Shown here: one piece after another, positions 4,285 through 64,000 of the stretch
Position numbering within the stretch: position 1 is the stretch's first letter
Layout: each line of letters opens with the position of its first letter
From: Blastocatellia bacterium
GTDB lineage: Bacteria; Acidobacteriota; Blastocatellia; RBC074
DNA length: 64,000 nt
Assembly: GCA_046154695.1 (NCBI GenBank)
Contig: JBJXFI010000413.1
Coordinates: 9,823-73,822, forward strand
Direction: 5' to 3'
Translations under genes and position numbers: made by a program
The notes under the pieces: model-generated
What the model was told of the DNA's origin: nothing
The model's input: only the letters and a program-made list of their open reading frames with translations
Databases searched by the model: none

Positions 4285-4369
4285 CGTCAAGGCCGACGCA
4301 AGCGGGGGGGCGCGTCCGGGGGGCTTTCCCGGCGCGCGCCGCTTACGCTTCAGCATTGCCGGGGAACCC

Positions 4370-4597
4370 ATGAAAACATACAAAATCAACAGCGAGATCT
4401 ATGGCGAATTGATGAACACATTGATGAATGAGCGTTCACGATTCGATTCGGAAGAGGAGTTTCAACGATTCGCCGTCGACGAGGTGCGGCGGTTCATCAG
4501 CGAATTGCGTTCGATCAACATCGAGCTGGCGATGCGCCCCAATTACAGCGGGCGGCCCATCTCCCGGCCCGGCGGGACGCAAAAACCGGCCAGGTAG
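4370..4597 (+). CDS. small hypothetical protein (75 aa)
   Basis: ATG with upstream ggggaa RBS; track ORF 4232 begins with TTG inside terminator so trimmed to the first ATG; no recognisable motifs. Confidence 0.4.
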   Translation: MKTYKINSEIYGELMNTLMNERSRFDSEEEFQRFAVDEVRRFISELRSINIELAMRPNYSGRPISRPGGTQKPAR

Positions 4598-4728: not shown

Positions 4729-4826
4729 GGATAACGGAACAGCCGGAAATAACGGAACAAACGAAACAAGACCGGGAAGAGTCCGTTTGTTCCGTTATTT
4801 CCGGCTGTTTCGTGCTCTCTTCTTTT
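4729..4826. repeat. inverted-repeat element family S (GGAAATAACGGAACAAACG ... CGTTTGTTCCGTTATTTCC); second copy at 38563-38645
   Basis: perfect 19-bp arms around a 23-nt loop; 85 percent identical truncated copy upstream of wzm. Confidence 0.75.
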
Positions 4827-12010: not shown

Positions 12011-12020
12011 TTGAATAAAA

Positions 12021-12103
12021 TCGTTTGGGGTTCCGCCTTCAGGGGGCCGGCCGTTCGCAAAGCCCGGCGGCCTGAAGGCGGAACTCCAAACGATTTCCGA
12101 GGA
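12021..12103. repeat. REP-like nested palindrome (R-family) copy R1: TCGTTTGGGGTTCCGCCTTCAGG ... CCTGAAGGCGGAACTCCAAACGA
   Basis: 22-bp arms, inner CCGCCTTCAGGCGG itself palindromic; copies at 19910, 32419, 44677, 47561 plus half-copies 38662 and 63661. Confidence 0.85.
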
Positions 12104-12322
12104 GCTTTCATGTCGCGTGGCGACGCCCGGAAACAATGAAATGCATGGTGGCACAAGCTGTCCAGCTTGTGCCTGGTGTAAGGTGCGCGTGAAGAGTCCG
12201 GCGGGGCGGGCGCCTGAAGGGGTCTCGTTCGAGGCCCGGACTTTTTCTGGTAGTGTCTGCCAGACACTCTCGGATGCGGCACAAGCTGGACAGCTTGTGC
12301 CACTTTTTCCGAGGAGCGGTTC
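12104..12322. repeat. composite palindromic repeat (P-family) bounded by two 24-bp palindromes GGCACAAGCTGTCCAGCTTGTGCC / GGCACAAGCTGGACAGCTTGTGCCAC, with internal terminator-like module GGGGTCTCGTTCGAGGCCCGGACTTTTTCT
   Basis: about 80 percent identical to 63675-63888 and to window start; ends 1 bp before ATG of 12323 gene and contributes its GAGGAG RBS. Confidence 0.8.
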
Positions 12323-14271: not shown

Positions 14272-15342
<1,071 letters not shown>

Positions 15343-15343
15343 C

Positions 15344-15398
15344 GGGCAAATCAAAAGGCAAAAGGAGGCCTCCCCTTTTGCCTTTTGATTTGCCTGTT
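15344..15398. terminator. bidirectional terminator hairpin between convergent fbaB and radical-SAM gene
   Basis: GGGCAAATCAAAAGGCAAAAGGAGG / CCTCCCCTTTTGCCTTTTGATTTGCC, about 24-bp stem built from tandem CAAAAGG units. Confidence 0.6.
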
Positions 15399-19976: not shown

Positions 19977-20321
19977 ATGTCACAATCGAGAATCGATGCC
20001 TTCCTCATTATGACGAAGACCCAGCCCGAGAACGAGATGATCTGGTACGGGCTGGCGAATGAATACACGAAGCTCTCGGCATGGCCGGAAGCGATCGACG
20101 CGCTCCGCAATGTGATCCGGATCAAGCCGGATTACACATCGGCTTATCAGTTGCTCGGTTCCGCGCTGTTGAGCCAGGGCCAGGCCGAGGAGGCGCGCCG
20201 CGTGTGGACGGAAGGCCTCGCCGTCGCGGACCGAACCGGCGCCTGGAAGGCCCGGCAGCATATGGAAGGGTTGCTGGCCGGAGCGGCGAATGAGGGCGAG
20301 GCCGGATTTTGCGAGGAATAA
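19977..20321 (+). CDS. TPR repeat protein (small)
   Basis: TPR-like helical repeats (WYGLANEY...AIDALRNVIRIKPDYTSAYQLLGSALLSQGQAEEA); upstream part of track ORF is repeat translation. Confidence 0.65.
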   Translation: MSQSRIDAFLIMTKTQPENEMIWYGLANEYTKLSAWPEAIDALRNVIRIKPDYTSAYQLLGSALLSQGQAEEARRVWTEGLAVADRTGAWKARQHMEGLLAGAANEGEAGFCEE

Positions 20322-20326
20322 AGGAT

Positions 20327-21184
20327 ATGCGGAACAGGAAAGGCGGAAAAAAGCCGCAGCAGGCCCGGAAATCGACGGCATCGGACGAGGCGGGGGCCGG
20401 CGCGAGTTGGAAGCGGTTTGCGGCCCCGGCGGCGATGGCGTTGATGCTTGCGTCCGCGGCATTCATCTATTTTCGGGGCTGGGAAAGGTTCTCGTATGGG
20501 AATTCCGCGCCGGCGTCCGGCGGGACGAATCTGACCCGGGCCGCGGCGGGAACCAACACGGGCGAGATGGGCGTGTCGGGAGAACCGATTCGAATGACCG
20601 TGGCGCAGGCGGTGGTCGTGACTGAAGAGCTCGATTTCGGGGGGCGCATCCCCTCGCTGGCGGAAGCGGTCGGGCAGATCGAGCGCGCCTACCAGCCCGA
20701 TGACGGGCAGGGGCGAACCTTCGCCATCCTCGATGCGCGCGGCGAAACGACCCCCGAGGGTCGATTGAAGATCTCCATGCACGTCAGCAGCGAGAAGCCC
20801 GGCATGGCGTTCCTGCGATTCCGCCCGACGGGGCGGCTCTTCTGGCGCGCGCGAATCGGAAGCCCCGGAGAGCCTCCGGCCGGCCCGAAAAACCTGGTGA
20901 TCCATCTCTCGAACGGGAGCGGGGGCAATTTCGTTCTCGATGGCAAGCGCGGCGGCGCAAGCGTGCTCGATGTCTTCATTCAGGGATCCACGTCGCGCGC
21001 GCGCGATGTCTGGCCGGACGGGACCGAGCGCGAAGTGACCTTCATCTACAGCGCCTGTGGATGCCCGGTGAAGGTGATGGTTCGCCGGGAGGGGGACCGC
21101 ACCGCCCGGACCCGGCTTTCGCCGGTCATCTTCCCCGACGATCCGGATGTCGTCGCGACAATCTCGGCGCTTATGAAATGGTGA
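20327..21184 (+). CDS. hypothetical membrane-anchored protein
   Basis: basic N-terminus then TM AAPAAMALMLASAAFIYF; no recognisable domain; aaggat RBS. Confidence 0.5.
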   Translation: MRNRKGGKKPQQARKSTASDEAGAGASWKRFAAPAAMALMLASAAFIYFRGWERFSYGNSAPASGGTNLTRAAAGTNTGEMGVSGEPIRMTVAQAVVVTEELDFGGRIPSLAEAVGQIERAYQPDDGQGRTFAILDARGETTPEGRLKISMHVSSEKPGMAFLRFRPTGRLFWRARIGSPGEPPAGPKNLVIHLSNGSGGNFVLDGKRGGASVLDVFIQGSTSRARDVWPDGTEREVTFIYSACGCPVKVMVRREGDRTARTRLSPVIFPDDPDVVATISALMKW

Positions 21185-21202
21185 TTTGTCGGAAAAGAGG
21201 GA

Positions 21203-21258
21203 ACGGAACGACGTACCACATCCCCTGTGGCTCCGTCTGTTCCGTTTTTTCGCGCGCG
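21203..21258 (+). terminator. intrinsic terminator after hypothetical gene
   Basis: GGAACGGAACGAC...GTCTGTTCCGTT stem followed by TTTTTT. Confidence 0.55.
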
Positions 21259-23774: not shown

Positions 23775-23790
23775 CGTCCGTGTGGAGTGC

Positions 23791-23940
23791 CGCGGCTTGA
23801 CGCAGCTTTCCTATCCCCTGCGTTATCGGCGAACTTCGAGCGAGAGCGGTCCCTGCGCGATGCGATAACGACAGGGACCCGTACAGAACAAGAGTGCGAT
23901 TGCGTCGGGGGCTTGGAAAGCTGCGTCAAGCCGCAGCACT
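23791..23940. other. 150-nt structured inverted-repeat element (28-bp outer stem, nested inner stem)
   Basis: GGAGTGCCGCGGCTTGACGCAGCTTTCC (23791-23818) pairs GGAAAGCTGCGTCAAGCCGCAGCACTCC (23913-23940), 1 mismatch; inner CCTGCGTTATCG / CGATAACGACAGG. Confidence 0.6.
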
Positions 23941-23971
23941 CCAAGCGCTCCGCGTGTTTTTAACGGTCTGA

Positions 23972-28861: not shown

Positions 28862-29344
28862 ATGGCTGAAAAGACACAGGAACTGAAGATCATTACGACG
28901 AATCGCGACGCCTACCACAATTACCATATCCTTGAAACCCACGAGTCGGGCATTCAGTTGACGGGAACCGAAGTCAAATCGGCGCGCGCCGGGCGCGTCA
29001 ATCTGAAAGAGGCCTACGCCAGGATCGAGGGGGGAGAGGCCTGGCTGCTCAACGCGCACATCAGCCACTATTCGCACGGCAATCGCCAGAATCACGATCC
29101 CGTCCGCGAGCGCCGGCTGCTGCTGCATAAACGCGAGATCTTCCGGCTGCAATCCAAGATTCAGGAGAAGGGGCTGACTCTCATTCCGACCAAGCTCTAT
29201 TTCAAGGGCAATTTGATCAAGTGTGAGCTGGCGATCGCCAAGGGCAAGAAGTTATACGATAAACGGGAGTCCGAAACGCGCAAGACGCAGGAACGCGAAG
29301 CCCGCGCGGCGCTCAAGAGCAGATCCCGGGGAGAGGAGAGCTGA
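28862..29344 (+). CDS. smpB: SsrA-binding protein
   Basis: NRDAYHNYHILE...LTGTEVKS...LLLHKREI. Confidence 0.92.
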   Translation: MAEKTQELKIITTNRDAYHNYHILETHESGIQLTGTEVKSARAGRVNLKEAYARIEGGEAWLLNAHISHYSHGNRQNHDPVRERRLLLHKREIFRLQSKIQEKGLTLIPTKLYFKGNLIKCELAIAKGKKLYDKRESETRKTQEREARAALKSRSRGEES

Positions 29345-29520
29345 TCGTTGAGAGCTGATCGTTGAGAGTTGATAATTGAGAGTTGATAATTGATAGCGAC
29401 AGAATCGCCGTGGCCATTGCGAAACCTCTCACTAACGCTCAACATCGAAAAGAACCCGGGACGCGAAATCAGAAATTCCGACCACTATCAACAATCAACA
29501 ATCAACTATCAATTTAATCA
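29330..29520. repeat. tandem 14-bp repeats (GAGAGCTGATCGTT x2, GAGAGTTGATAATT x2) overlapping smpB stop, plus opposing CAATCAA x3 array forming an imperfect long hairpin
   Basis: direct reading of 29330-29400 and 29488-29520. Confidence 0.7.
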
Positions 29521-29531
29521 GGGGTTTTGAG

Positions 29532-31007
29532 ATGGACGTGAGAGCGATTGCAGGAAGGTTCGATGAGATCGAGGGAGACGCGCTGGTCGTCATGGTTTTT
29601 GAGGGAGAGGCGCCGGACGCGGGCGTCATCGGGGAGCTGAATCGGCAGACGCAGGGTGTGATTGCGTCGTTGATCGAAGCGGGCGAATTCACCGGCAAGT
29701 CGGGAGAGAGCGCCTATATCCACCATCCGGCCGGGCTGCGGGCGCGGCGGTTGCTGTTGTTGGGGGCGGGCAAGGAGGCGGAGTTTACATCCGAGACCCT
29801 GCGCCGGCTGGCGGGAACGGCGACGCGGACGCTGCGCGGGAAGAAGGCGCGCATCTTCGCGCTGCTCTGCCGCTGGTCGCTGCCCGCCGCCGAGAGCGCG
29901 CAGGCGGCGACGGAGGGCGCCGTGCTGGCGCTGTTCGATCCAGACAAGTATCACACGAGCGATAAGACCGAGAGCCATCTGGAGACGATGGCGCTCGTCG
30001 TGGCCGAAGACGGACTGGAAGAGACGCGGCGCGGCAGCGAGCGGGGCCGGATCATCGCCGAGGCGGCCAACTTCGCTCGTGAGGTGATCAATGAGCCGAG
30101 CAATTTGATGACGCCGACCGAACTGGCGCGCAGGGCCGAAGAGACCGCGAAGACCTATGGGCTCGAACTCGATGTCATCGAAGAGGCGCAGATGAAGGAA
30201 CTCGGCATGGGGTCGCTGCTCGGCGTCGCGCAGGGAAGCGCGGAGCCCGCCAAGCTGATCGTCATGCGCTACACGCCGAAGGCCGAATCGAGCGAGACCG
30301 TCGCCATCATCGGCAAGGGCGTGACGTTCGACACGGGCGGCATCTCGATCAAGCCCGCGGATGGGATGGAGAAGATGAAATACGACATGGCCGGCGGGGC
30401 GACAACCATCGCGGCCATGCGCGCGATCGCCCAGCTCAGGCCCGCGGTCCATGTGCTGGGAATCGTTCCGGCGGTCGAGAACATGCCCGGCGGGCGGGCG
30501 CAGCGCCCGGGAGACGTCGTGCGCTCGATGTCGGGCAAGACGATCGAGGTCATCAACACCGATGCGGAGGGGCGCCTGATCCTGTGCGACGCGATCAGCC
30601 ATGCCCGCAATCTCGGCGCCACCCGGATCGTCGATCTCGCCACGCTGACCGGGGCGGTTTCGATCGCGCTCGGCGATGTCCATGTCGCCATCCTCGGCAA
30701 CAATCAGCCGTGGATCGATGATGTCATCGCCGCCGGCAAGCGCGCCGGCGAGAAGCTTTGGCAGCTTCCCCTGACGCCCGAATACCGCGAGCAGATCAAA
30801 AGCGAGATCGCCGATATCAAGAATGTCGGGGGGCGAAAGGCCGGCACCATCACGGCGGCGTATTTCCTCCGCGAGTTCGTCGATGACGTCCCATGGGCGC
30901 ATCTCGACATCGCCGGAACGGCGTGGAACGAGAACGGCAAGCCGCATTTCGCCGTCGGCCCCACGGGCGTCTGCGTGCGGACGCTGGTCGCGCTGGTTTG
31001 CGGGTAG
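29532..31007 (+). CDS. pepA: leucyl aminopeptidase (M17)
   Basis: NTDAEGRLILCDAISHA M17 signature; VTFDTGGISIKP. Confidence 0.92.
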   Translation: MDVRAIAGRFDEIEGDALVVMVFEGEAPDAGVIGELNRQTQGVIASLIEAGEFTGKSGESAYIHHPAGLRARRLLLLGAGKEAEFTSETLRRLAGTATRTLRGKKARIFALLCRWSLPAAESAQAATEGAVLALFDPDKYHTSDKTESHLETMALVVAEDGLEETRRGSERGRIIAEAANFAREVINEPSNLMTPTELARRAEETAKTYGLELDVIEEAQMKELGMGSLLGVAQGSAEPAKLIVMRYTPKAESSETVAIIGKGVTFDTGGISIKPADGMEKMKYDMAGGATTIAAMRAIAQLRPAVHVLGIVPAVENMPGGRAQRPGDVVRSMSGKTIEVINTDAEGRLILCDAISHARNLGATRIVDLATLTGAVSIALGDVHVAILGNNQPWIDDVIAAGKRAGEKLWQLPLTPEYREQIKSEIADIKNVGGRKAGTITAAYFLREFVDDVPWAHLDIAGTAWNENGKPHFAVGPTGVCVRTLVALVCG

Positions 31008-31022
31008 TGTCGTAATTCCTTA

Positions 31023-31105
31023 AAAATCGTCCGCGAAGTTAAACGAAGAAACACGAAGGTTGAACCATTCCTTCGTGTTTCTTCGTTTAACTTCGTGGAC
31101 GATTT

Positions 31106-31106
<1 letters not shown>
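31023..31106. terminator. about 36-bp-stem hairpin (tandem ACGAAG units) between convergent pepA and Wzy-like gene
   Basis: AAAATCGTCCGCGAAGTTAAACGAAGAAACACGAAGG / CCTTCGTGTTTCTTCGTTTAACTTCGTGGACGATTTT, 1 G-U. Confidence 0.65.
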
Positions 31107-32359
<1,253 letters not shown>

Positions 32360-32418
32360 CAGCAGGATCAGAAGGGCGGCGTAAATAATCTTTTCGAGAA
32401 TAGGGGCTCCTCAGAAAC

Positions 32419-32484
32419 TGTTTGGAGTTCCGCCTTCAGGCGGTCGGTCTCGCGCCAACCGCCTGAAGGCGGAACTCCGAACGG
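32419..32484. repeat. REP-like R-family copy R3
   Basis: TGTTTGGAGTTCCGCCTTCAGGCGG ... CCGCCTGAAGGCGGAACTCCGAACGG; minus-strand GAGGAGC SD-like sequence adjacent. Confidence 0.85.
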
Positions 32485-32521
32485 TCTTCATCATTTTTCC
32501 GGGCGCCGCAGGCCGCCCTCG

Positions 32522-38562: not shown

Positions 38563-38645
38563 CGGGATAGCGGAACAGACGGAAATAACGGAACAAACGA
38601 AACAAGACCAGGAAGAGACCGTTTATTCCGTGCTCTCTTCTTTCG
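38563..38645. repeat. S-family repeat, truncated copy
   Basis: GGGATAGCGGAACAGACGGAAATAACGGAACAAACGAAACAAGACCAGGAAGAGACCGTTTATTCCGTGCTCTCTTC. Confidence 0.7.
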
Positions 38646-43550: not shown

Positions 43551-43566
43551 GGATGATTGATGGGAC

Positions 43567-43623
43567 CTATGGGACTTATAGGACCCATAAGTCCTATGAG
43601 TCCCATGAGTCCCATAAAAAATG
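43567..43623. other. about 25-bp-stem hairpin built from ATGGGAC heptamer repeats
   Basis: GATGGGACCTATGGGACTTATAGGAC / GTCCTATGAGTCCCATGAGTCCCAT; followed by A-run, so not a classical + strand terminator. Confidence 0.55.
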
Positions 43624-44718
43624 CAAATCACTTTTGTCTTGCCCATGTACCTCGATGTTCCGTCGGGCGGGTTCAAGGTGGTGTATGAATACGCGAACCG
43701 CCTGCAGGCCCGCGGCCATCGCGTGACGCTGATTCATCCGCGGACGATCGAACGCGCGCCGGGCGCGGTGGAAGCGTTCAAGCGGTTCGCATGGCGTTAC
43801 AAGATCCGCCTGAGGGATCGCCCGCTGGTTCCGTGGTTTCCGCTTCATCCGGGGGTGCGGGCGCTGCTGGCTCCCGATCTGGGCGCGGAGTCGATTCCAC
43901 CGGGAGACGCGATCTTCGCCACGGCTTTTGAAACCTCCTTCCCGGTCTATGCATGTCCGGCCGACCGCGGGCGGAAGTTTTACCTGATCCAATCCTACGA
44001 AGAATGGAACGGGCCGAAAGAGAAGGTGCGGGAGAGCTGGCGCCTGCCGCTGCGAAAGGTGGTCGTCTCGCGCAGGTTGATGGCGCACGCCCGCGAACTC
44101 GGCGTGGGCGAAAGCACGGTGCTGATTCCGATCGGGCTGGATTTTTCACAATTCCGGGCAACGACGCCGATCGATCGACGGCCCACGCTCCGCGTCGGGA
44201 TGGTGGCGCACCCGAACGAGCTCAAGGGGATGCGCGACGGCATCGCGGCGCTGGAGATGGCGCGGGCGGAGATCCCGGATCTGCGGGCCGTGCTTTTCGG
44301 AACGCCGCCGCGCGATGCGGCCATCCCGGCCTGGATGGATTATCTGCAACGCCCCGCGCCGGAGCGGATGGTCTCGCTCCACAATTCCTGCCGGATCTTT
44401 CTGCATCCGAGCCGGGCGGAAGGCTGGGGGCTGCCCGCGGCCGAGGCGATGGCTTGCGGCTGCGCCCTCGTATCGGCCGATAACGGCGGCGTGCACGAGT
44501 TCGCCACGGATGAGGTGAGCGCGCTGATCGCGCCCATCAAATCGCCGCCGGAACTGGCGCGGCGCATCGTCCGGCTGCTTCGCGACGATGAGCTGCGGCA
44601 GCGCATCGCAAGGGCGGGCGCCGAACAGGTGGGGCAATTCACCTGGGACCGCGCCGTTGATCAATTGGAGCAATTGTTCGGAGTTCCGCCTTCAGGCGGA
44701 CTGACCATGGAGAAATAG
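43621..44718 (+). CDS. glycosyltransferase family 4 (GT-B)
   Basis: GGxxxxxxxxA N-terminal GT4 fold, EGWGLPAAEAMACG C-terminal motif; last 13 codons lie inside REP copy R4. Confidence 0.85.
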   Translation: MQITFVLPMYLDVPSGGFKVVYEYANRLQARGHRVTLIHPRTIERAPGAVEAFKRFAWRYKIRLRDRPLVPWFPLHPGVRALLAPDLGAESIPPGDAIFATAFETSFPVYACPADRGRKFYLIQSYEEWNGPKEKVRESWRLPLRKVVVSRRLMAHARELGVGESTVLIPIGLDFSQFRATTPIDRRPTLRVGMVAHPNELKGMRDGIAALEMARAEIPDLRAVLFGTPPRDAAIPAWMDYLQRPAPERMVSLHNSCRIFLHPSRAEGWGLPAAEAMACGCALVSADNGGVHEFATDEVSALIAPIKSPPELARRIVRLLRDDELRQRIARAGAEQVGQFTWDRAVDQLEQLFGVPPSGGLTMEK

Positions 44719-44747
44719 GTTCCGCCTGAAGACGGAACTCCAAACGG
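44677..44747. repeat. REP-like R-family copy R4, overlapping 3' end of GT4 gene and abutting next ATG
   Basis: TTCGGAGTTCCGCCTTCAGGCGG ... CCGCCTGAAGACGGAACTCCAAACGG. Confidence 0.85.
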
Positions 44748-47522: not shown

Positions 47523-47560
47523 CGAGTGGGAAGGGAACAGCGTATGAGAAGAGATCCCTC

Positions 47561-47632
47561 GTTCGGGGTTCCGCCTTCAGGCGGAATTGTCGCAATGAAA
47601 AATCGACCGCCTGAAGGCGGAACTCCGAACGG
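47561..47632. repeat. REP-like R-family copy R5 at the 5' end of the hypothetical secreted-protein gene
   Basis: GTTCGGGGTTCCGCCTTCAGGCGG ... CCGCCTGAAGGCGGAACTCCGAACGG; ATG 47595 lies in the loop. Confidence 0.85.
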
Positions 47633-47651
47633 TTTCCGCTGGCTGCTGGGC

Positions 47652-49238
47652 ATGCTGTTGATCGTGATGCCAATGGCGAGGGCGCAGCCGCCTGCCGTCG
47701 CGGAAGCCATTCGGGCGGAGGCGCTGCGGCCGGACCTGGATGTCGCCGACCGGCCGCTGCCGCTCGCGGGCCACTGGAATCTCGGCGAGGGGCGGGACGG
47801 GTTCGGCCCGGAATACCAGATGCGTATGCTGGACCGGGGCCATCACCTGCTGCCGTGGTTTCTGATGCCCAACGAGCAGGCCAATCCCGAGGACCCGCGC
47901 TGGCGTAGCTATTACGAGGGGGCGTTCCGGCGCGCGGCGCAATTGCGCCTGCCGATTTCGCTGATCGGGACGCAATGGGAGCAGATGCTCTCGGTCGAGC
48001 AGGAATATCTCGATCTCCCGCCGGAGCAGAACCCGAACGTCGTGCAGGGCGATGGAAAGATCCGCCGGGAGGTCTCGCCCTTCGGCCCGATCGGCGCATG
48101 GTACGAGGCGGGACAGCGTTGGGGATCGACCGCGATGTTGAAGCGGCTGCAGGATCTTTATCCCGATCCGCCTCTGGTCGTCTTCGTTTCGAATCACGAA
48201 CACGCCAAATTGCAATGGCCGAAGGCCGAGGAGGATCGCCGGTTCGGCAGGCTTTTTGGCGACGGCCGCGACGATGAGTTCAAGCGTCGGATCGTCGGCG
48301 ATGGCTGGATCGCGCGATATCGGGCGCTGCAGGCCGGGTTGCGGGATGGGCTGACCAATGCCAATTGGAAAGCGAAGGCGATCTTTATCGGGTACGACGC
48401 TTTCGGGCCGGCGCATTTCGGCCGGTGGGCGGGGTGGATGGAGTACGCCCTCAACAGCAAGAGGCGCATCGATCCGTGGGTTCACGCCTGGGACGGCGGC
48501 TCGCCCTCGTTCTATGTCTACAATTGGGCGGCGGTGACGGACTACACGGTGTTCAGCCCGCAGGTCGAGACCATGAACTGGGTTTTTATGCAGGACGAGG
48601 CGCGCCGCGTTCATCAGGGATCGGGGCGCAACTTCTGGTTTGAGATGTCGGTCTGGGACGGCCACGAGCCCGCGCAGGAGAACGACAAGCGGAAGACCTA
48701 CGCCCGGTCGGGGCAGCGGTTCACGCCGGAGCGATACGGCGGCATGGCGCAGTTCGGGATGTGGCTGCTGCGCCCGCGCGTCGTGCGGGAATTTCGCGGG
48801 TGGCAGGATACGCTCGCCCAGGCCGAGCCCTACTTCACGCCGATCGTGGAGGCCGTCGATCGCGTGCACGAAAATCCGGTCCTGCGCGAATTCTGGCGGC
48901 GGGGGCGGCTTGTGGCCAACCGGGCGCATGCCCATCCGTATCAGACGGCCGTGCCGCCGGAATATCAGAATCTCGACCGCTGGTTTCTGCTCGACACCTC
49001 GGCCGATCCGCGACGGCCGTGGGAACTGGGGACGCCGCTGCCGGTCTTTTCCCTGGCGCTGGTGACGGGCAGCGCGCCGCGGCGCCAGTGGCTGGTCTAT
49101 GCCCACGCGCCTCTCGGCGCGCGCAATTCGATCTCGGTGACGATTCCGGACTATCGCGCCGTCAATATCGATGTCTCGCTCGGCGGATCGTATTATCTGG
49201 TGGAAGAGCGGACCGGCCGCGCACAGCCAGTGAAATGA
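47652..49238 (+). CDS. hypothetical secreted protein (about 529 aa), no recognisable family; alternative start 47595 inside REP would give a longer signal peptide
   Basis: long uninterrupted ORF in operon frame; signal-peptide-like LLGMLLIVMPMARA-QPP; Trp/aromatic-rich. Confidence 0.6.
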   Translation: MLLIVMPMARAQPPAVAEAIRAEALRPDLDVADRPLPLAGHWNLGEGRDGFGPEYQMRMLDRGHHLLPWFLMPNEQANPEDPRWRSYYEGAFRRAAQLRLPISLIGTQWEQMLSVEQEYLDLPPEQNPNVVQGDGKIRREVSPFGPIGAWYEAGQRWGSTAMLKRLQDLYPDPPLVVFVSNHEHAKLQWPKAEEDRRFGRLFGDGRDDEFKRRIVGDGWIARYRALQAGLRDGLTNANWKAKAIFIGYDAFGPAHFGRWAGWMEYALNSKRRIDPWVHAWDGGSPSFYVYNWAAVTDYTVFSPQVETMNWVFMQDEARRVHQGSGRNFWFEMSVWDGHEPAQENDKRKTYARSGQRFTPERYGGMAQFGMWLLRPRVVREFRGWQDTLAQAEPYFTPIVEAVDRVHENPVLREFWRRGRLVANRAHAHPYQTAVPPEYQNLDRWFLLDTSADPRRPWELGTPLPVFSLALVTGSAPRRQWLVYAHAPLGARNSISVTIPDYRAVNIDVSLGGSYYLVEERTGRAQPVK

Positions 49239-49248
49239 GACGGGATTG

Positions 49249-49336
49249 GCCACGAATGAACACGAATGTTCACGAATGGCCGGGGAGAGTGCCCCGTTTA
49301 CCCTTTTATTCGTGTACATTCGCGCATATTCGTGGC
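49249..49336. other. imperfect long hairpin built from CACGAATG octamer repeats with inner GC clamp
   Basis: GCCACGAATGAACACGAATGTTCACGAATGGC ... GCCACGAATATGCGCGAATGTACACGAATAAAAG (rc). Confidence 0.5.
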
Positions 49337-49348
49337 TGAAACTACTGC

Positions 49349-50575
49349 ATGAGACGCGTGCTGCTGCTCAACAATGTTCCCACGCCCTATTTCGATCCGC
49401 TGTTCGAGCTTGTGGGGCGGGAATCGGGATGGGAGCTGACGGTCTGCTATTCCTCCGCGTGGAACCGGGCCGTCGGATGGGAGGAGAAGGCGCGGGACGA
49501 GAGCGGCGCGCATCGAACGATCATTCTCGATCGGCGGCGGCCCCGGCTTCGCGCTCGATTCGGTTCGTGGGCGGCGGCGGCCGCCGCGCTAGTCGAACTT
49601 CTGCGGCGCGAGCGGCCCGACTATCTGATTTGTTATGGGTACACGCTGCTTCCCCAGATGAGCGCATTGCTCTGGGCGATCGCGACAGGGACGCCCTTTG
49701 CCGTGATCGGAGACGCCAACTATTACACCGATGGCGCGGCGGGCCTCAAACGGGCCCTCAAGCGCCGCTGGCTTCGCTGGATCACCCGCCGCGCCGCCGC
49801 GCTGATCGCCGTCGGCGCCGCCGCCCGCCTCTTCTGGGAATCGTATGGCGCGCGCGCCGATCAGCTCTTCGAATCGCCCTTCGCCGTGGATAATGAGTTC
49901 TTCATCCGCGATCGCGAGGGGCGGATGCGGGCCGCGGAGGCGCTTCGCGATCGCTGGCAACTGGCGGGGAAGACGGTCTTTCTCTATGTGGGCCGCCTCG
50001 TACGGCGCAAGAATGCGCATCTCGTGATCCGCGCCCTTCGCGAGCTGCCGGAACCGAATCTCGCGCTCGTGATCGCGGGCGCCGGAGAAGAGCGCGCCGC
50101 GCTCGAATCTCTCGCCGGAGGCGATCCGCGCATCGTCTTCGCGGGGATCATCGCTCCGCGGGACCTGCCGGCGCTTTACACCGCGGCCGATGCCCTCGTC
50201 CTCGTCGCCGATCAGGAGCCCTGGGGGCTCGTCATCAACGAGGCCATGGCCTCCGGCCTGGCCGTGCTCGCGCACCGCCACTGCGGCGCCGCCGTCGATC
50301 TCGTCGATGAGACGAACGGCGCGAAAATCGATCAATTCGACGTCGGAGAGATCAAGGCCGCCCTCCGCTCCATGGCCTCGGATCGCGATCGATTACGGCG
50401 CCTGCAGGAGGGGTCGCGACAAAAGATAAAAAAATGGACGCTTGAACGCGCGGCCTGTGGTATCATCCGCGCCGTTGAAGAATCAGCCGCACCCCCGCAG
50501 CCTGAGCCGCGCCCGAGTGGACGATTGAACCCTCGGCCCGGATCTCGGCATGAAATAGAAAGAATAGAGAAATGA
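49349..50575 (+). CDS. glycosyltransferase family 4
   Basis: GT-B fold; EPWGLVINEAMASG motif. Confidence 0.82.
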   Translation: MRRVLLLNNVPTPYFDPLFELVGRESGWELTVCYSSAWNRAVGWEEKARDESGAHRTIILDRRRPRLRARFGSWAAAAAALVELLRRERPDYLICYGYTLLPQMSALLWAIATGTPFAVIGDANYYTDGAAGLKRALKRRWLRWITRRAAALIAVGAAARLFWESYGARADQLFESPFAVDNEFFIRDREGRMRAAEALRDRWQLAGKTVFLYVGRLVRRKNAHLVIRALRELPEPNLALVIAGAGEERAALESLAGGDPRIVFAGIIAPRDLPALYTAADALVLVADQEPWGLVINEAMASGLAVLAHRHCGAAVDLVDETNGAKIDQFDVGEIKAALRSMASDRDRLRRLQEGSRQKIKKWTLERAACGIIRAVEESAAPPQPEPRPSGRLNPRPGSRHEIERIEK

Positions 50576-52075: not shown

Positions 52076-53299
52076 ATGCCTCGCATATTAATCAACGCAC
52101 TGTCCTCTACCGCCGGCGGCGGCATTACCTATTTGAAGAATGTATTGCCGCGATTGGAACGATTCGACGTGATGAATCATTACGTGGTTCTTGTGCCGCC
52201 GGAACATTTCGATCAATACAAGCCCTACGTGACCAGGCACATCAGCATCGAGACGGTGCATCCGATGGGCGGGACCGCGGGGCGGCTGCTTTGGGAGCAG
52301 ACCTTTTTGCGGAGCTTCGTCCGAAGGCGAAAGATCGGGGTGCTGGTCTCGCTCGGCAATTTCGCGATCCTGGGCGCGCGGGTTCCGCAGGTGCTGTTCA
52401 GCCGGAATGACCTCTATTTTTCGCCGGATTTCGAGCAGGATCTGAAGGCGCGGGGGCGGCAATTCGATGTTGTCAGCAACCGGTTGAAATCGCGGCTGGC
52501 GTGCGCGTCCATCCGGCAGGCGCAGATCAACATCACGCCGACGGCGGCGTTTGCCGCGCGCATTCGGTCGCACGAGGGGATGGACGGGATCCGATTCGAG
52601 GTGGTTCCCTTCGGATTCGATTCCGAGGTCTTTCTGGGAGAGGGCGAGCCGCTGAGTGAAGAGCAGTTGCGGCTGCTCGAGCCGGGCGAGTCCTGCAGCC
52701 GTCTGCTCTATGTGAGCAATTACAACTATTTTCGGAATTTCGAGACGCTGATCCGCGCGCTGCCTTTTATCCGGGGGGAGATTCGGGAGCGGGAGGATCG
52801 CGATGTGCAGCTCATCCTGACGACCGACATCCGGCAGGGGGCGGTTCATGGCGGGTACGATTCATCGGCCGCCGCGGAACTGATCGACCAACTGCGGCTG
52901 CGCGACAACATCGCCATGCTGGGGCCGGTCGATTACCACAAGCTTCATCATCTGTATCGGATGAGCGACGCGTTTGTCTGCCCGTCGTATTCAGAGAGCT
53001 TTGGCCATCCGCTGGTCGAGGCGATGGCCAGCGGGGTGCCGGTGGTCGCCGCGAATCTGCCGGTTCATCGCGAGGTGTGCGAGGACGCGGCGCTCTATTT
53101 TCGCCCCTTCGATGTGCGGGAACTGGCGCGGCAGAGCGTTCGCGTTCTGACCGAGCCGAGGCTGGCCGAAGTGATGCGATCCCGCGGCCTAGAACGGGTA
53201 CGCCATTTCTCCTGGGACGATCACGTCCGCAAATTGATCCGATTGGTGGAGCGGTGCCTGCCGTATCGCGCGGCCGTCTCGAAGGTCTTTCCCGTTTAA
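52076..53299 (+). CDS. glycosyltransferase family 4
   Basis: GT-B fold, ESFGHPLVEAMASGVPVV motif. Confidence 0.82.
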   Translation: MPRILINALSSTAGGGITYLKNVLPRLERFDVMNHYVVLVPPEHFDQYKPYVTRHISIETVHPMGGTAGRLLWEQTFLRSFVRRRKIGVLVSLGNFAILGARVPQVLFSRNDLYFSPDFEQDLKARGRQFDVVSNRLKSRLACASIRQAQINITPTAAFAARIRSHEGMDGIRFEVVPFGFDSEVFLGEGEPLSEEQLRLLEPGESCSRLLYVSNYNYFRNFETLIRALPFIRGEIREREDRDVQLILTTDIRQGAVHGGYDSSAAAELIDQLRLRDNIAMLGPVDYHKLHHLYRMSDAFVCPSYSESFGHPLVEAMASGVPVVAANLPVHREVCEDAALYFRPFDVRELARQSVRVLTEPRLAEVMRSRGLERVRHFSWDDHVRKLIRLVERCLPYRAAVSKVFPV

Positions 53300-53310
53300 T
53301 AAATGGTAGG

Positions 53311-53383
53311 CAACCACGGGGAGCACGGGGAACACGGGGAAATAGAGGTTCTTTCCCCGTGTTCCCCGTGCTTCCCGTGGTTG
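53311..53383 (+). terminator. 32-bp-stem hairpin built from CACGGGGA octamer repeats, followed by ATTTTCT
   Basis: CAACCACGGGGAGCACGGGGAACACGGGGAAA / TTTCCCCGTGTTCCCCGTGCTTCCCGTGGTTG (1 G-U). Confidence 0.65.
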
Positions 53384-53398
53384 ATTTTCTGACTATTC

Positions 53399-54334
53399 AT
53401 GCCGGCCCCAAAAGAATCCGAGAAGTTTCCCCTTTCCGTCATCATTCCCGTCAAAAACGAAGAGCGAAATCTGGCCGCGTGCCTGGAGAGCGTCGCGTGG
53501 GCGGACGACATCTGGGTCGTCGATTCGGGCAGCACGGATGGGACGGCGGGGATCGCCGAGGCGCATCGCGCCCGGGTCGCGCAGTTCGATTATTCGGGCG
53601 GGTTTCCCAAGAAGAAGAACTGGGCGCTCGCGAATCTGCCGCTCCGGCATGAATGGGTGCTGCTGATCGATGCGGACGAGCGCGTCACGCCCGAGCTGGC
53701 GGGCGAAATCCGCGACCGGCTGGGCGGCGGAGAGGCTGCCGACGGCTATTATCTCAATCGAAAACTGATCTTTCTGGGGCGATGGATCCGGCATTGCGGC
53801 TGGTATCCGAGCTGGAATCTGCGGCTGTTCAAGCACAGGCTGGGCCGGTACGAGAAGCTGGAGGCCGGGGACGTCGAGAACGCCGGCGACGTCGAGGTTC
53901 ACGAACACGTCGTTTTGCAGGGGCGCGGCGAGTATCTCGGGAACGATCTGCTGCACGAGGATTTCAAGAGCATCTATCATTTCATCGAGCGTCATAACCG
54001 CTACTCGAACTGGGACGCGCGGGTCTATCACAATCTGGCCTCGGGCGTCGCGTTCGGCAGCGCGATCGGCGCCTCTCCCTTCGGTTCGCCGCTCGAACGG
54101 AAGCGGTTTCTCAAGCGGATGTGGGCGCGATTCCCGTTTCGCCCGCTGTTTCGCTTCGTCTGGATGTACATCGTCAAACGGGGCTTTCTGGACGGTCGCG
54201 CCGGATTGATCTTCTGCACGCTGATGACCATGCATGAGGCCGTCATCTCGGCGAAGATGTATGAAGAGAGGCTGAAGATCGCGCAGGGAGCGGATGCGGC
54301 GACAAACGACATTTCTCACTCGAAGAATCCGTAA
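53399..54334 (+). CDS. glycosyltransferase family 2
   Basis: LSVIIPVKNEE...VVDSGSTDGT...IDADE. Confidence 0.8.
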   Translation: MPAPKESEKFPLSVIIPVKNEERNLAACLESVAWADDIWVVDSGSTDGTAGIAEAHRARVAQFDYSGGFPKKKNWALANLPLRHEWVLLIDADERVTPELAGEIRDRLGGGEAADGYYLNRKLIFLGRWIRHCGWYPSWNLRLFKHRLGRYEKLEAGDVENAGDVEVHEHVVLQGRGEYLGNDLLHEDFKSIYHFIERHNRYSNWDARVYHNLASGVAFGSAIGASPFGSPLERKRFLKRMWARFPFRPLFRFVWMYIVKRGFLDGRAGLIFCTLMTMHEAVISAKMYEERLKIAQGADAATNDISHSKNP

Positions 54335-56298: not shown

Positions 56299-56322
56299 GG
56301 GCAGGCCCCCGTGCCTGCCCCG
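56299..56322 (+). terminator. short GC hairpin after asnB-like gene
   Basis: GGGGCAGGC-ccccgt-GCCTGCCCC. Confidence 0.4.
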
Positions 56323-56340
56323 GTTGTCGGTGGGGCTCTT

Positions 56341-58482
56341 ATGAAGCAAGTGACACAGAACGTTCGCACGGGCGTGCTGAAGGTGGACGAGGTGCCGGAG
56401 ACGATCTGCAAGCGCGGCGGGGTGCTCGTGGACAATGCCACGTCGCTGATCAGCGCGGGGACCGAGAAGATGGCGGTCGATTTCGCGCGGAAGTCGCTGG
56501 CGGGAAAGGCGCGGGAGCGGCCGGATCTGGTTCGCCAGGTGCTGCTGAAACTGAAGCGGGACGGGTTGACGAACACGATCAACACCGTGCGAGCGCGGCT
56601 GGAGTCGCCGTTGGCGCTTGGATACAGTTGCGCGGGTGTCGTGCGGGAGATCGGCGCGGGGGCGGAGGAGTTCCGCGTCGGGGATCGCGTGGCGTGCGCC
56701 GGGATGAATTACGCCTCGCATGCCGAGACGGTCTTCGTTCCGAAGAATCTGGCGGTGCGGATTCCGGAGGGCGTGAGCTTCGACGAGGGGGCCTTCGTCA
56801 CGCTGGGAGCGATCGCGCTGCAGGGCGTGCGAACGGCGGAGGTCAGGCTGGGCGATGCGGCGGCGGTGATCGGGCTGGGGCTGCTCGGCCAGTTGACGGC
56901 GCAGATTCTGAAGGCGGCCGGATGCCGCGTCATCGGAATCGACCTCGAGCAATCGAAGATCGACCTTGCCCGCGAGTTCGGCGCCGATGAGGCCGTGCTC
57001 CGCGGCGATGACGTCGAGCGGCGCATCGCGGCATTCACCGATGGGCACGGGGTCGATGCCATCATCGTCGCCGCGGCGGCCGACACCAATGATCCGATCG
57101 AGCTTGCGGGCGTCATCGCCCGCGATCGCGCGATCGTCTCGATGGTCGGCGCGGTGCGAATGGAGATCCCGCGAAAGATCTATTACGAAAAGGAGCTGCA
57201 GCTTCGCCTCTCGCGCTCGTACGGGCCGGGCCGGTACGATGCGATCTACGAAGAGCAGGGCGTCGATTACCCGATCGGGTATGTGCGCTGGACCGAGCGT
57301 AGAAATATGCAGGAGTTTCTGCGCCTGGTCGCGGCGCGCGCGGTGCGGCTCGCTCCGCTGATCACGCATCGCTTTCCGATCGAGGAAGCCGGGACGGCCT
57401 ACGAGATCATCACCGGCAAGCGGCGCGAGCCTTATATGGCCGTTTTGCTGCAATACGCCGCCGAGGCGCCCGGCTCGAAGGTCGTGGCGCTAAGCGCGCG
57501 CGCCGCGTCCGGAGAGATCCGGCTGGGCGTGATCGGCGCGGGAAATTTCGCGAAGAGCGTGCTGCTGCCCCGGCTCGCGAAATCGCGCGAGGTCCGGCTC
57601 GCCGGCATCGCGACCGCGACCGGAAGAAATGCCCGGGCCATCGGCGAGCAGTATGGATTCGGCTTCTGCACGACCGATTATCGGGAACTGCTCTCGCGCG
57701 AAGAGGTCAATACCATCCTCATCGCCACGCGCCACGACACGCACGCCCGTATGACGGCCGAGAGCCTGCGCGCGGGCAAGAACGTCTTCGTGGAGAAGCC
57801 GCTTGCCATCGACCAGGAAGGGTTGGAGGAGGTTCGGGCCGCCGTGAATGCCGCCGGAGAAACGGCGCCGCGCCTGATGGTCGGTTTCAACCGGCGGTTC
57901 TCGCCCCTCTCCAACGAGCTGAAGTCCTTTTTCGCCGGCGCCGGTCCGCTGGCCGTCACCTACCGCGTCAACGCCGGCGAGATCCCGAAAGAGAGCTGGG
58001 TTCATGCCGAGGAGGGCGGCGGGCGCATCGTCGGTGAAGTCTGCCACTTCGTCGATTACCTGCAATTCCTGACCGGGTCCGATCCTGTGGAGGTCTTCGC
58101 CCTCGCCGGCGCCTCGGGCGTCGATACGCTGAGCATTGTCCTCAAATTCAGCGACGGCTCGATCGGCGGCATCAACTACTTCGCGACCGGAGATCGAGGC
58201 TTTCCGAAAGAACGGGTTGAAGTTTACGGCGGCGGACGCGCCGCCGTTCTCGACGATTTTCGCTCGCTCGAAACGTGGCGCGACGGAAAACGGGCCGTCA
58301 CCCGCCGCGGTTCGCAGGAGAAGGGCTTCGATCAGGAGCTTGCCGCCTTCCTCACGGCGATCCGCTCCGGCCGGGAGATGCCCATCTCCTGGCAGAGCCT
58401 GTTTCTGACGACGGTGACGACGCTACGGATCGAGGAATCGCTGAGAAATGGTTGCCGGTTGCCGGTCGCCGGGTGTCAGTAA
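56341..58482 (+). CDS. bi-domain oxidoreductase (N-terminal zinc-type alcohol dehydrogenase/MDR domain fused to C-terminal Gfo/Idh/MocA NAD-binding oxidoreductase)
   Basis: MDR-like N-half (GxGxxG VIGLGLLG); C-half RLGVIGAGNFAKSVLLPRL Rossmann + Gfo/Idh/MocA C-domain; ATG 56341 (track GTG 56311 lies in the hairpin). Confidence 0.8.
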   Translation: MKQVTQNVRTGVLKVDEVPETICKRGGVLVDNATSLISAGTEKMAVDFARKSLAGKARERPDLVRQVLLKLKRDGLTNTINTVRARLESPLALGYSCAGVVREIGAGAEEFRVGDRVACAGMNYASHAETVFVPKNLAVRIPEGVSFDEGAFVTLGAIALQGVRTAEVRLGDAAAVIGLGLLGQLTAQILKAAGCRVIGIDLEQSKIDLAREFGADEAVLRGDDVERRIAAFTDGHGVDAIIVAAAADTNDPIELAGVIARDRAIVSMVGAVRMEIPRKIYYEKELQLRLSRSYGPGRYDAIYEEQGVDYPIGYVRWTERRNMQEFLRLVAARAVRLAPLITHRFPIEEAGTAYEIITGKRREPYMAVLLQYAAEAPGSKVVALSARAASGEIRLGVIGAGNFAKSVLLPRLAKSREVRLAGIATATGRNARAIGEQYGFGFCTTDYRELLSREEVNTILIATRHDTHARMTAESLRAGKNVFVEKPLAIDQEGLEEVRAAVNAAGETAPRLMVGFNRRFSPLSNELKSFFAGAGPLAVTYRVNAGEIPKESWVHAEEGGGRIVGEVCHFVDYLQFLTGSDPVEVFALAGASGVDTLSIVLKFSDGSIGGINYFATGDRGFPKERVEVYGGGRAAVLDDFRSLETWRDGKRAVTRRGSQEKGFDQELAAFLTAIRSGREMPISWQSLFLTTVTTLRIEESLRNGCRLPVAGCQ

Positions 58483-58512
58483 CCGGCAACCGGCGACCGG
58501 CTACCGCCAACC
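58446..58512 (+). terminator. hairpin of GGTTGCC heptamer repeats spanning the stop codon of the oxidoreductase
   Basis: GGTTGCCGGTTGCCGGTCGCCGG (coding) / CCGGCAACCGGCGACCGGC (post-stop). Confidence 0.5.
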
Positions 58513-63660: not shown

Positions 63661-64000
63661 GGGAAACTCCAAACAATTTCCGAGAAGCCGTCATGTCGCG
63701 TGACGACGCCCGGAGACAATGAAAAGCATGGTGGCACAAGCTGTCCAGCTTGTGCCGAGTGTGTGTGTGGGCGTGAAGAGTGCGTCGCGTCGCGCGGCGG
63801 AAGGGGTCTCGTTCGAGGCCCGGTCTTTTTCCGGGAGTGTCTGGTGGATGCGGCACAAGCTGGACAGCTTGTGCCACATTTTCCAAAGCATGGTGGCACA
63901 AGCTGTCCAGCTTGTGCTGAGTGTGTGTGTGGGCGTGAAGAGTGCGTCGCGTCGCGCGGCGGAAGGGGTCTCGTTCGAGGCCCGGTCTTTTTCCGGGAGT
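63661..64000. repeat. R-family half arm followed by two tandem units (about 162 bp each) of the composite palindromic P-family repeat, running off the window end
   Basis: GGGAAACTCCAAAC...CATGGTGGCACAAGCTGTCCAGCTTGTGCC...GGCACAAGCTGGACAGCTTGTGCCAC repeated at 63727 and 63889; the 92-nt segment GAGTGTGTGTGTGGGCGTGAAGAGTGCGTCGCG...GTCTTTTTCCGGGAGT (63757-63848 = 63919-64000) is repeated exactly. Confidence 0.85.

Follow-up and report, generated by a model that had tools for sequence, protein, structure and literature searches.

A long hairpin at positions 53311 to 53383 of a 64,000-nucleotide stretch of Blastocatellia bacterium DNA (assembly GCA_046154695.1, contig JBJXFI010000413.1; the whole stretch is called the window below) is a local variant of the known intergenic hairpin repeats of the repetitive extragenic palindromic (REP) and MITE (miniature inverted-repeat transposable element) type, and not a new kind of system. 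Whole elements of about 70–120 nt like this one have been gained, lost and replaced at gene junctions, beside or inside the 3' ends of genes. Several of their arm types form low-copy families within and across genomes, and a resident element is inherited vertically, its hairpin being kept by compensatory or concerted change. The reading favoured here, with moderate confidence and from sequence comparison, is that the hairpins are lineage-specific, REP/MITE-like insertional palindromic repeats with microsatellite-like arms, which probably serve as 3'-end or processing hairpins in RNA.

The flagged element fills most of the gap between two glycosyltransferase genes.

53311..53383, no strand assigned: flagged hairpin element, arms 53311-53342 and 53352-53383, loop TAGAGGTTC

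The 32-nt arms are 97% complementary, with one mismatch, and enclose a 9-nt loop. Each arm is made of three 9-nt units, CACGGGGAR on one side and YTCCCCGTG on the other, with the unit copies CACGGGGAG, CACGGGGAA and CACGGGGAAA; Tandem Repeats Finder reported a period of 9 and 3.0 copies per arm. Three GGGG runs are present per arm, and G-runs are absent from most units at the other sites. The 99-nt spacer with the hairpin was predicted to fold as RNA with a minimum free energy of -71.4 kcal/mol (z = -12.2), and none of 200 dinucleotide shuffles folded as well. The minus strand as RNA gave -64.3 kcal/mol, and folding as DNA gave -42.3 kcal/mol. Upstream of the spacer lies a glycosyltransferase family 4 (GT4) gene (52076-53299) and downstream a family 2 (GT2) gene (53399-54334), the hairpin beginning 11 nt past the GT4 stop codon and ending 15 nt before the GT2 ATG. 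The surrounding polysaccharide cluster extends from 34.8 to 63 kb and encodes Wza, Wzc, an ABC exporter, many glycosyltransferases, AsnB and a heparinase-like protein; nearly all genes of the window are on the plus strand. The stem is followed by ATTTTCT (five T in eight nucleotides), and its inner part was flagged by a simple terminator scan.

The hairpin observation is real and statistically solid. An earlier note, made from the letters of the window, had listed eight intergenic sites with very long hairpins, and all eight, 53311 included, were found to hold long inverted repeats, those at 23783 and 29336 with loops of about 100 nt. Nine hairpins (score at least 16, loop 3–30 nt) were counted in the window against a mean of 0.00 in 20 first-order Markov simulations, which is more than chance explains. 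All 12 hairpins obtained with loops of up to 160 nt are located in intergenic DNA, which makes up 8.6% of the window, and most begin 2–15 nt past a stop codon. Their stems are far longer than those of terminators, as had been stated: 32 bp at 53311, 21–40 bp at the other sites of the window and up to 76 bp in relatives. Arm periodicity exceeded that of composition shuffles at P≤0.01 in seven of nine tandem-type arms tested, with 15342 and 31020 marginal; the test covered six of the seven tandem sites of the earlier note, and the sites 4734 and 38571 were found in the present analysis. Periods were 9–10 nt (53311, 43560, 49249, 31023), 7 nt (58450, 15345) and 14 nt (29336). The arms are thus periodic as proposed, but the quoted 6- to 8-mers are only the cores of units of 7, 9–10 and 14 nt. 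No Rfam family matched at its gathering threshold anywhere in the window. At E≤1 the only matches were to unspecific models of long hairpins, those of eukaryotic miRNA precursors, with scores about half of what the thresholds demand; they were discarded as matches of shape only.

The hairpin architecture is lineage-specific in the Blastocatellia, which are soil bacteria. A single hairpin scan was applied to all fetched DNA, divided into a lineage set and the rest.

Lineage set (578 kb; the window and the 35 loci nearest to it): 61 long hairpins or 1.06 per 10 kb, the arms periodic in 27
Rest (1.76 Mb; 125 further loci, Acidobacteriota and metagenome): 28 long hairpins or 0.16 per 10 kb, the arms periodic in one

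The 27 periodic arms have periods of 7 (15 arms), 9 (5), 14 (3), 10 (2), 8 (1) and 15 nt (1). In 40 of the 61 lineage hairpins the 5' arm is purine-rich (at least 0.6) and the 3' arm T/C-rich, and in one the 5' arm is pyrimidine-rich; this polarity is equal on both strands. The nearest relative in the AsnB metagenome scan stood at 74%, the closer ones (86–89%) coming from protein searches only.

Synteny is kept around pepA and through the polysaccharide cluster, so that junctions can be compared directly between the window and loci from related genomes and metagenome contigs, which are labelled with L-numbers (L001, L161 etc.). At the flagged junction, L161, L162, L163 and L164 (GT2 about 88% identical) have a gap of 100–101 nt with an orthologous hairpin, which keeps the 9-nt unit, repeated three times in each arm. 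Overlaps of 10–26 nt between GT4 and GT2 are present in L081, L086 and L090, and a spacing of 17 nt in L084, all without the 53311 element, and L083 carries a different hairpin of 21 bp (7977-8034). From these filled and hairpin-less junctions, 53311 is an insertion in one sub-lineage that has been inherited since. A hypervariable contingency locus was considered and rejected on weak evidence, the hairpin being identical in L161 and L162 despite 2.2% divergence over 3.2 kb.

An insertion between direct repeats was found at 49249, between the gene 47652-49238 and the GT4 gene starting at 49349.

49246..49339, no strand assigned: imperfect hairpin, each arm having three CACGAAT cores spaced 10 nt apart, in a 114-nt insertion
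49235..49242, plus strand: left 8-bp direct repeat ATGAGACG flanking the 49249 insertion, including the stop codon of the upstream gene
49349..49356, plus strand: right 8-bp direct repeat ATGAGACG, including the start codon of the GT4 gene that follows

In L161 and L163 the site has a single ATGAGACG with overlapping stop and start codons (ATGA). In the window 114 extra nucleotides are present, a 106-nt insert together with a second copy of the 8-mer, so that ATGAGACG stands at either side, a signature resembling a target-site duplication. Insertion polymorphism of the MITE type, with filled and empty junctions, was observed at 53311, 49249, uvrD-miaB, hyp-uvrD and AsnB-oxidoreductase. The uvrD-miaB junction holds a REP-like element in the window, is empty in L167, and in L166 is occupied by a giant hairpin with units of 22 nt. 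The hairpin at 21197 in the hyp-uvrD junction is absent from L166 and L167, and between AsnB and the oxidoreductase gene a small REP in the window is replaced by an AACGGAA hairpin in L161. Around the wzy gene, at the pepA-wzy and wzy-h127 junctions, the ACGAAG hairpin and a REP element swap sides between the window and L166. Elements also reach into the 3' ends of genes: the last 9–10 codons of the two-domain oxidoreductase (56311-58482) form the left arm of the 58450 hairpin (58450-58482), with GGTTGCC units in the window and, after a different truncation, CCAGTAG heptamers in L161, and in both the tail that is conserved in L082 and L084 has been replaced. Most relatives have a hairpin after pepA and another in the smpB-pepA spacer, with differing units. 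In that spacer tandem-unit hairpins were seen in L007, L016–L019, L021 and L024, and an array orthologous to 29336 in L166; the motif GGATTTT common to L016, L017, L018 and L024 indicates that units can also be inherited. The comparison of orthologous junctions advised in the earlier note gave a picture of one element type replaced by another at a junction, and beyond it the gain and loss of whole elements with one 8-bp duplication like that of a target site.

The claim that every hairpin is unique in sequence did not hold, as one 9-nt unit builds several hairpins in the window.

4734..4813, no strand assigned: AACGGAACA family (9-nt unit) hairpin, copy 1
38571..38645, no strand assigned: AACGGAACA family, copy 2, with a right-arm deletion relative to 4734
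21197..21251, no strand assigned: weaker AACGGAAC-type hairpin, a weak third copy of the AACGGAACA family, immediately past the stop codon that ends gene 20309-21184

At 4734-4813 and 38571-38645 the same element is present twice, with common arms, loop and 3' flank. The 4734 copy aligns with 38571 and with three copies in L005, a locus of 16.6 kb in which the AACGGAACA unit builds three hairpins and two arm types are present in 3 and 2 copies; a further member is situated in L161 at about 8720-8820. The ACGAAG hairpin at 31023 is orthologous to one in L167, and both L166, at a neighbouring junction, and L161 have related copies. The 49249 arm (CACGAATG type; shared arm GCCACGAATGAACACGAAT) is also found in L083 at 11777-11896, at a different junction, and the CAAAAGG arm of 15345 recurs at other junctions as AAATCAAAAGGCAAAAGG in L004 (5767-5864) and as the core ATCAAAAGGCA in L023 (4030-4066). 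With these, the arms of 4734, 15345, 31023 and 49249 all recur at non-orthologous sites. Arms similar to those of the 23783 element are present in L012 and L025. The impression of uniqueness arose because the sample was only 64 kb.

Viral contigs were also compared. The AACGGAACA core gave seven matches in them, all of them single-strand matches in coding-like sequence without a hairpin, and the CACGGGGAR pattern gave 48 scattered matches, one of which was inspected (L222), with no sign of phage carriage. Viral contig L222 has six direct tandem copies of CACGGGGAG at 14520-14585 without an inverted partner, probably a coding HGE repeat and a coincidence.

Resident hairpins are under structural constraint, as seen in the element after pepA.

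31020..31109, no strand assigned: hairpin of 37–40 bp, arms with three (C)ACGAAG cores

This hairpin separates the convergent genes pepA (29532-31007, plus strand) and a Wzy_C gene (31106-32359, minus strand). In a four-member alignment of the 31023 family, 95% of the cells were paired and 7 of 37 pairs had changed on both sides. Slid alignments gave at most one double-changed pair, and at most 2 of 500 shuffles reached the observed values. Between the window and L161, the 53311 arms differ at 11 of 64 positions (17%) against 31–41% at fourfold sites of the flanking genes, and thus evolve at about half the fourfold-site rate; one inner pair reads A-T, G.T and G-C across three genomes. Loops diverge freely, both in the 31023 family and among the 53311 orthologues, and the L161 copy of 53311 has decayed to -51 kcal/mol. 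The cores are more conserved than pairing alone needs: none of the 10 variable left-arm columns of the 31023 family falls within its 15 CGAAG core columns (P = 0.002), and six of the seven arm-to-arm mismatches at 49249 are in linkers, not in cores.

Under the favoured reading, the arms would be arrays of 7–10-nt units (14 nt at one site) that arose from reiterated short motifs, in the lineage of the window mostly (A/C)ACGRR cores with a spacing of roughly one helical turn. Replication slippage would lengthen and shorten the arrays, and either selection for pairing or intrastrand template switching, or the two together, would keep the arms complementary. In transcripts, stems with folding energies of about -50 to -75 kcal/mol at the ends of cistrons may block 3' exonucleases, offer an RNase III-type site or act as weak factor-independent terminators. 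Such a role in RNA would explain why some junctions always hold a hairpin, of whatever sequence. The function suggested in the earlier note, stabilisation of mRNA 3' ends, is likewise plausible, as is that of a processing site. Its proposal of a dedicated generating mechanism stands in part: the junctions point to insertional, REP/MITE-like behaviour with slippage of units, but the RAYT-like (REP-associated tyrosine transposase) activity that had been named found no counterpart gene in the window.

Several results weigh against this reading. Pfam scans of the 48 open reading frames (ORFs) of the window revealed no Y1_Tnp/RAYT or other transposase, and 53311 itself has no second copy in the 64-kb window or in the other loci searched. 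Only one clean pair of filled and empty sites has a clear duplication like that of a target site (49249, ATGAGACG); the L166 insertion has no evident one, and the other junctions are too diverged to judge. The 49249 palindrome is not terminal in its insert, its arms being set back by 5 nt on the left and by 12 nt on the right. In L083 the hairpin has the 3' end of the GT4 gene itself as its left arm; this arm matches the hairpin-less L084 at 18/21 positions, which suggests an inverted duplication in situ. Unique sequence is also part of very long perfect arms. Where a hairpin lies right against the following start codon, as some do, a stem that stays folded would hinder translation. An excess of G.U over A.C mismatches on the sense strand, taken as a sign of selection on RNA, was seen as plus-strand G.T in the first four hairpins and was gone over 54 (9 sense versus 14 antisense; 8 versus 4 in the 31023 family), so that there is no direct sign of RNA, rather than DNA, being the selected form.

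The L083 hairpin is also an argument for palindromes made in situ without a mobile element, in which a gene-end seed is inverted by fold-back or template switching and its units are multiplied by slippage. The left arm at 7977-8034 comprises the GT4 coding end and stop codon, and L084, with the matching sequence, has no right arm. The unique sequence in very long perfect arms (62 bp at L005 9832), the nesting of different arrays in one palindrome (L004 11516, L005 2690, L021 5467) and the near-perfect Watson-Crick arms with no G.U preference are all consistent with such an origin, and the units near 43560, 49249 and 53311 loosely resemble, as a weak indication, the sequence around the adjacent stop codon. 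Identical arm segments of 17–19 nt and whole-element similarity at non-orthologous loci and in different genomes speak against it, as do the 8-bp duplication around a 106-nt insert of non-local sequence and the different element types held by one junction in close relatives; we consider it rather unlikely. A related idea, quite unlikely in our estimate, is that the Blastocatellia have an endogenous, templated way of making palindromes, an enzyme or a quirk of replication or repair that seeds, reiterates and inverts (A/C)ACGRR or heptamer motifs at gene ends. The L083 left arm, perfect arms of 45–62 bp with unique sequence and the turnover of occupants at fixed junctions would be consistent with it, and cistron boundaries would then have a self-renewing supply of terminator or insulator modules by a route other than classical transposition. 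A different view takes the hairpins as intrinsic, often bidirectional terminators, kept by selection for termination and drifting to low-complexity stems by slippage. They stand directly past stop codons and also between convergent genes (15342, 31020), the 5' arm is purine/A-rich and the 3' arm T/C-rich in 40/61 against the reverse in 1/61, compensatory changes keep the stems paired, pepA is followed by one hairpin or another in most relatives, and canonical hairpins with A-tract, stem and T-tract occur in some of them, for example L002 and L003. However, the genes parted by 53311 and 49249 overlap in relatives, which indicates operonic, translationally coupled pairs, and stems of 25–60 bp are far beyond the needs of termination. 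The absence of a U-tract that had been pointed out for several sites was borne out: at least five T in the 8 nt past the stem occur in 10 of 61 lineage hairpins, 43560, 49246, 58450 and 15342 have none (43560 is followed by an A-run), and the T-run of 53311 is not conserved, with ATTTTCT in the window and ATCTTCT in L161 and L164. Canonical terminator-like sites were not enriched (22 found versus 17.1 ± 4.5 expected, 20 kb scanned). Because gene pairs that overlap in relatives are split, U-tracts are rare and unconserved and the same sequences recur at other loci, terminators as the whole explanation are improbable and rank below the insertional reading. The earlier statement that these are no ordinary terminators agrees with this, and the recurrent, lineage-specific architecture fits a dedicated origin.

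A role at the level of DNA, as arrays of operator- or iteron-like protein-binding cores or as non-B DNA (cruciform, G-quadruplex), had also been raised for protein binding in the earlier note and finds some support in the conserved unit cores, CGAAG and CACGAAT being invariant with variable linkers, and in the spacing of 9–10 nt, close to one helical turn. The analogous GGGAATC arrays of Xanthomonas have been proposed to form G-quadruplexes (PMC4692102). Unit sequences differ so widely that no single protein would read them all, the compensatory changes that keep linkers paired are not needed in a simple binding array, and unrelated sequences at the same junction argue for a role based on shape rather than on sequence; this explanation appears very unlikely. 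G-quadruplexes, for which 53311 offers three G4 runs per arm, and most units none, were rejected together with intrastrand triplexes (PMC4666352), as the arms are inverted and not mirror repeats and most units lack G-runs. Finally, chimeric fold-back reads could produce hairpins in assembly, all sequences here being from metagenome-assembled genomes (MAGs) or metagenome contigs and at least one contig, L161, ending inside a heptamer array. The same hairpin is nevertheless found at the same junction, with ordinary substitutions, in independent assemblies of different studies (window, L161/L162/L163 and L164; window and L167/L168), and the elements respect reading frames and gene boundaries, which makes an artefact hardly credible.

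The remaining hairpins of the window are the following.

15342..15397, no strand assigned: 24-bp hairpin with CAAAAGG units
23783..23943, no strand assigned: REP-like element after uvrD, 29-bp arms that are not clearly tandem, 103-nt loop
29336..29512, no strand assigned: split element in the smpB-pepA spacer, two arrays, loop of about 90 nt
43560..43615, no strand assigned: hairpin of about 25 bp with 9-nt units ATGGGACYT, filling the gap between two glycosyltransferase genes
58450..58512, no strand assigned: hairpin with 7-nt units GGTTGCC, overlapping the 3' end of the oxidoreductase gene 56311-58482
12018-12096, 32417-32485, 44676-44745 and 47560-47631, intergenic: REP-like GGAGTTCCGCCTTCAGGCGG inverted pairs, hairpins of 21–31 bp without tandem units

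The first of these is placed between the convergent genes for an aldolase (14272-15342, plus strand) and a radical-SAM protein (15403-17235, minus strand). In the split element, the left array (29336-29397) has direct 14-nt units GAGAGYTGATMRTT and its inverted partner (29487-29512) 7-nt units ATCAACW. The A-run after the 43560 hairpin leads to the next ATG. The GGAGTTCCGCCTTCAGGCGG sequence is a small palindrome itself and forms a REPIN-like family with related copies in L021 and L166. Another dispersed REP-like family is represented by the GC-rich small palindrome GGGGCAGGCCCCCGTGCCTGCCCC, located after AsnB at 56299-56322 and, as an identical copy, in the smpB-pepA spacer of L167 (9912-9935). 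The longest-ORF starts at 47526-47651 and 56311-56342 are probably too far upstream, orthologues (528 aa versus 570) beginning at a conserved ATGAAGCAAGTG; with corrected start codons the 47560 and 56299 hairpins fall between genes.

A repeat of about 160 nt with 26-nt palindromic ends GTGGCACAAGCTGTCCAGCTTGTGCC is present in three copies, at 12148-12303, at 63731-63877 and from 63893 to the end of the window. The last two are in tandem, and their junction forms the hairpin at 63853-63917. Inside the repeat, a stem like that of a terminator, GGGTCTCGTTCGAGGCCC, precedes a T-run, and no Rfam family matches; the repeat may be a gene for a small RNA, or else a MITE. In L166 the giant hairpin (4332-4524, -153 kcal/mol) consists of tandem units of about 22 nt, each palindromic (CCGAGCACCAGCTCGG), and a related element is found 11 kb away on the same contig (15213-15586). 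The class I aldolase gene (14272-15342 in the window) directly follows pepA in the distant relatives L001, L004, L005, L007 and L013. In the window (29532-32359), L166 and L167, pepA is followed by the wzy gene and the polysaccharide cluster, a rearrangement bounded by hairpin elements. Just downstream of the pepA hairpin, L016, L018 and L020–L024 share a short conserved ORF-like sequence, ATGTCCTTCACTCGC...CAGCAAATCGGCGCGCTC, which may encode a small membrane protein.

If the favoured reading is true, a bacterial class marks many of its gene ends with interchangeable hairpins built from repeats. Position and shape would be conserved in evolution as sequence is replaced, pairing compensated and unit cores fixed. 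An insertion can come between genes that are translationally coupled and can also, as at 58450, rewrite the C-terminus of a protein. The elements would be of relevance for the prediction of operons and terminators in Acidobacteriota MAGs and for assembly, since contigs break at palindromes.

Among known systems, a canonical intrinsic terminator has a GC-rich stem of about 5–15 bp, a loop of 3–8 nt and a U-tract. The present hairpins share with it a stem-loop directly downstream of the stop codon, at 53311 followed by ATTTTCT, but their stems are 3–6 times longer, the U-tract is mostly absent and the 53311 element is inserted between genes that overlap in relatives. The Correia/NEMIS elements of Neisseria and the enterobacterial ERIC sequences are MITEs situated in operons, which form long RNA hairpins and lead to RNase III cleavage or changed mRNA stability. 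Similar to these are the insertions of about 100 nt between co-transcribed genes, their variable presence and, in one case here, a duplication like that of a target site. Correia, NEMIS and ERIC elements are high-copy, duplicate a TA and have defined terminal inverted repeats as their outermost sequence, whereas the present elements are low-copy and diverse, with arms of tandem units and, in the one insert with mapped ends, a palindrome that is not exactly terminal.

REP, BIME and REPIN elements and their RAYT transposases have been described by Bertels and Rainey (2011, PMC3116915) and Di Nocera et al. (2013, PMC3733652), the conserved, unpaired GTAG or CGTC tag at one end of the palindrome being defined in PMC3733652. 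The likeness lies in short intergenic palindromes or inverted dimers after genes, long hairpins, families within a genome and long vertical inheritance, and the GGAGTTCCGCCTTCAGGCGG family of the window resembles the REP/REPIN type. Unlike the tagged, high-copy, RAYT-associated REPs, the tandem-unit hairpins are low-copy in the sampled sequence and have internally periodic arms. Neither tag flanks 53311, 43560, 49246 or 58450, and a CGTC in 31020 is inside the paired stem. A further difference from REPs is the 8-bp flanking duplication at one element (49249), together with the lack of a RAYT gene in the window. To our knowledge, REP/IS200-type elements make no such flanking duplications. Acidobacteria encode related tyrosine transposases flanked by long terminal inverted repeats (PMC3733652), and such a transposase is a candidate mobiliser of the hairpins.

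The nearest published description is that of the GGGAATC heptamer arrays of Xanthomonas, which usually have about 3–4 units and include, per genome, 70–75 convergent pairs that could form stem-loops (Rehm et al. 2015, PMC4692102). These arrays are strongly biased to places that overlap a stop codon or are no more than 50 bp from one, and two species mostly keep their presence and type with different lengths (PMC4692102). Convergent 7-nt arrays near a stop codon are likewise found here (58450; 15 of the 27 periodic arms of the lineage have period 7), 53311 itself having period 9. Xanthomonas uses one unit genome-wide, for which a G-quadruplex was proposed; here dozens of units with periods of 7, 9, 10 and 14 occur, most of them without G4 runs, and nearly all arrays are inverted pairs of near-perfect complementarity. 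Related heptamer repeats, the cyanobacterial STRR (short tandemly repeated repetitive) sequences, were reportedly described by Mazel and colleagues in 1990. The heptamer arrays of Xanthomonas and the cyanobacteria are unexplained, and the Blastocatellia would be a third independent lineage in which to study them.

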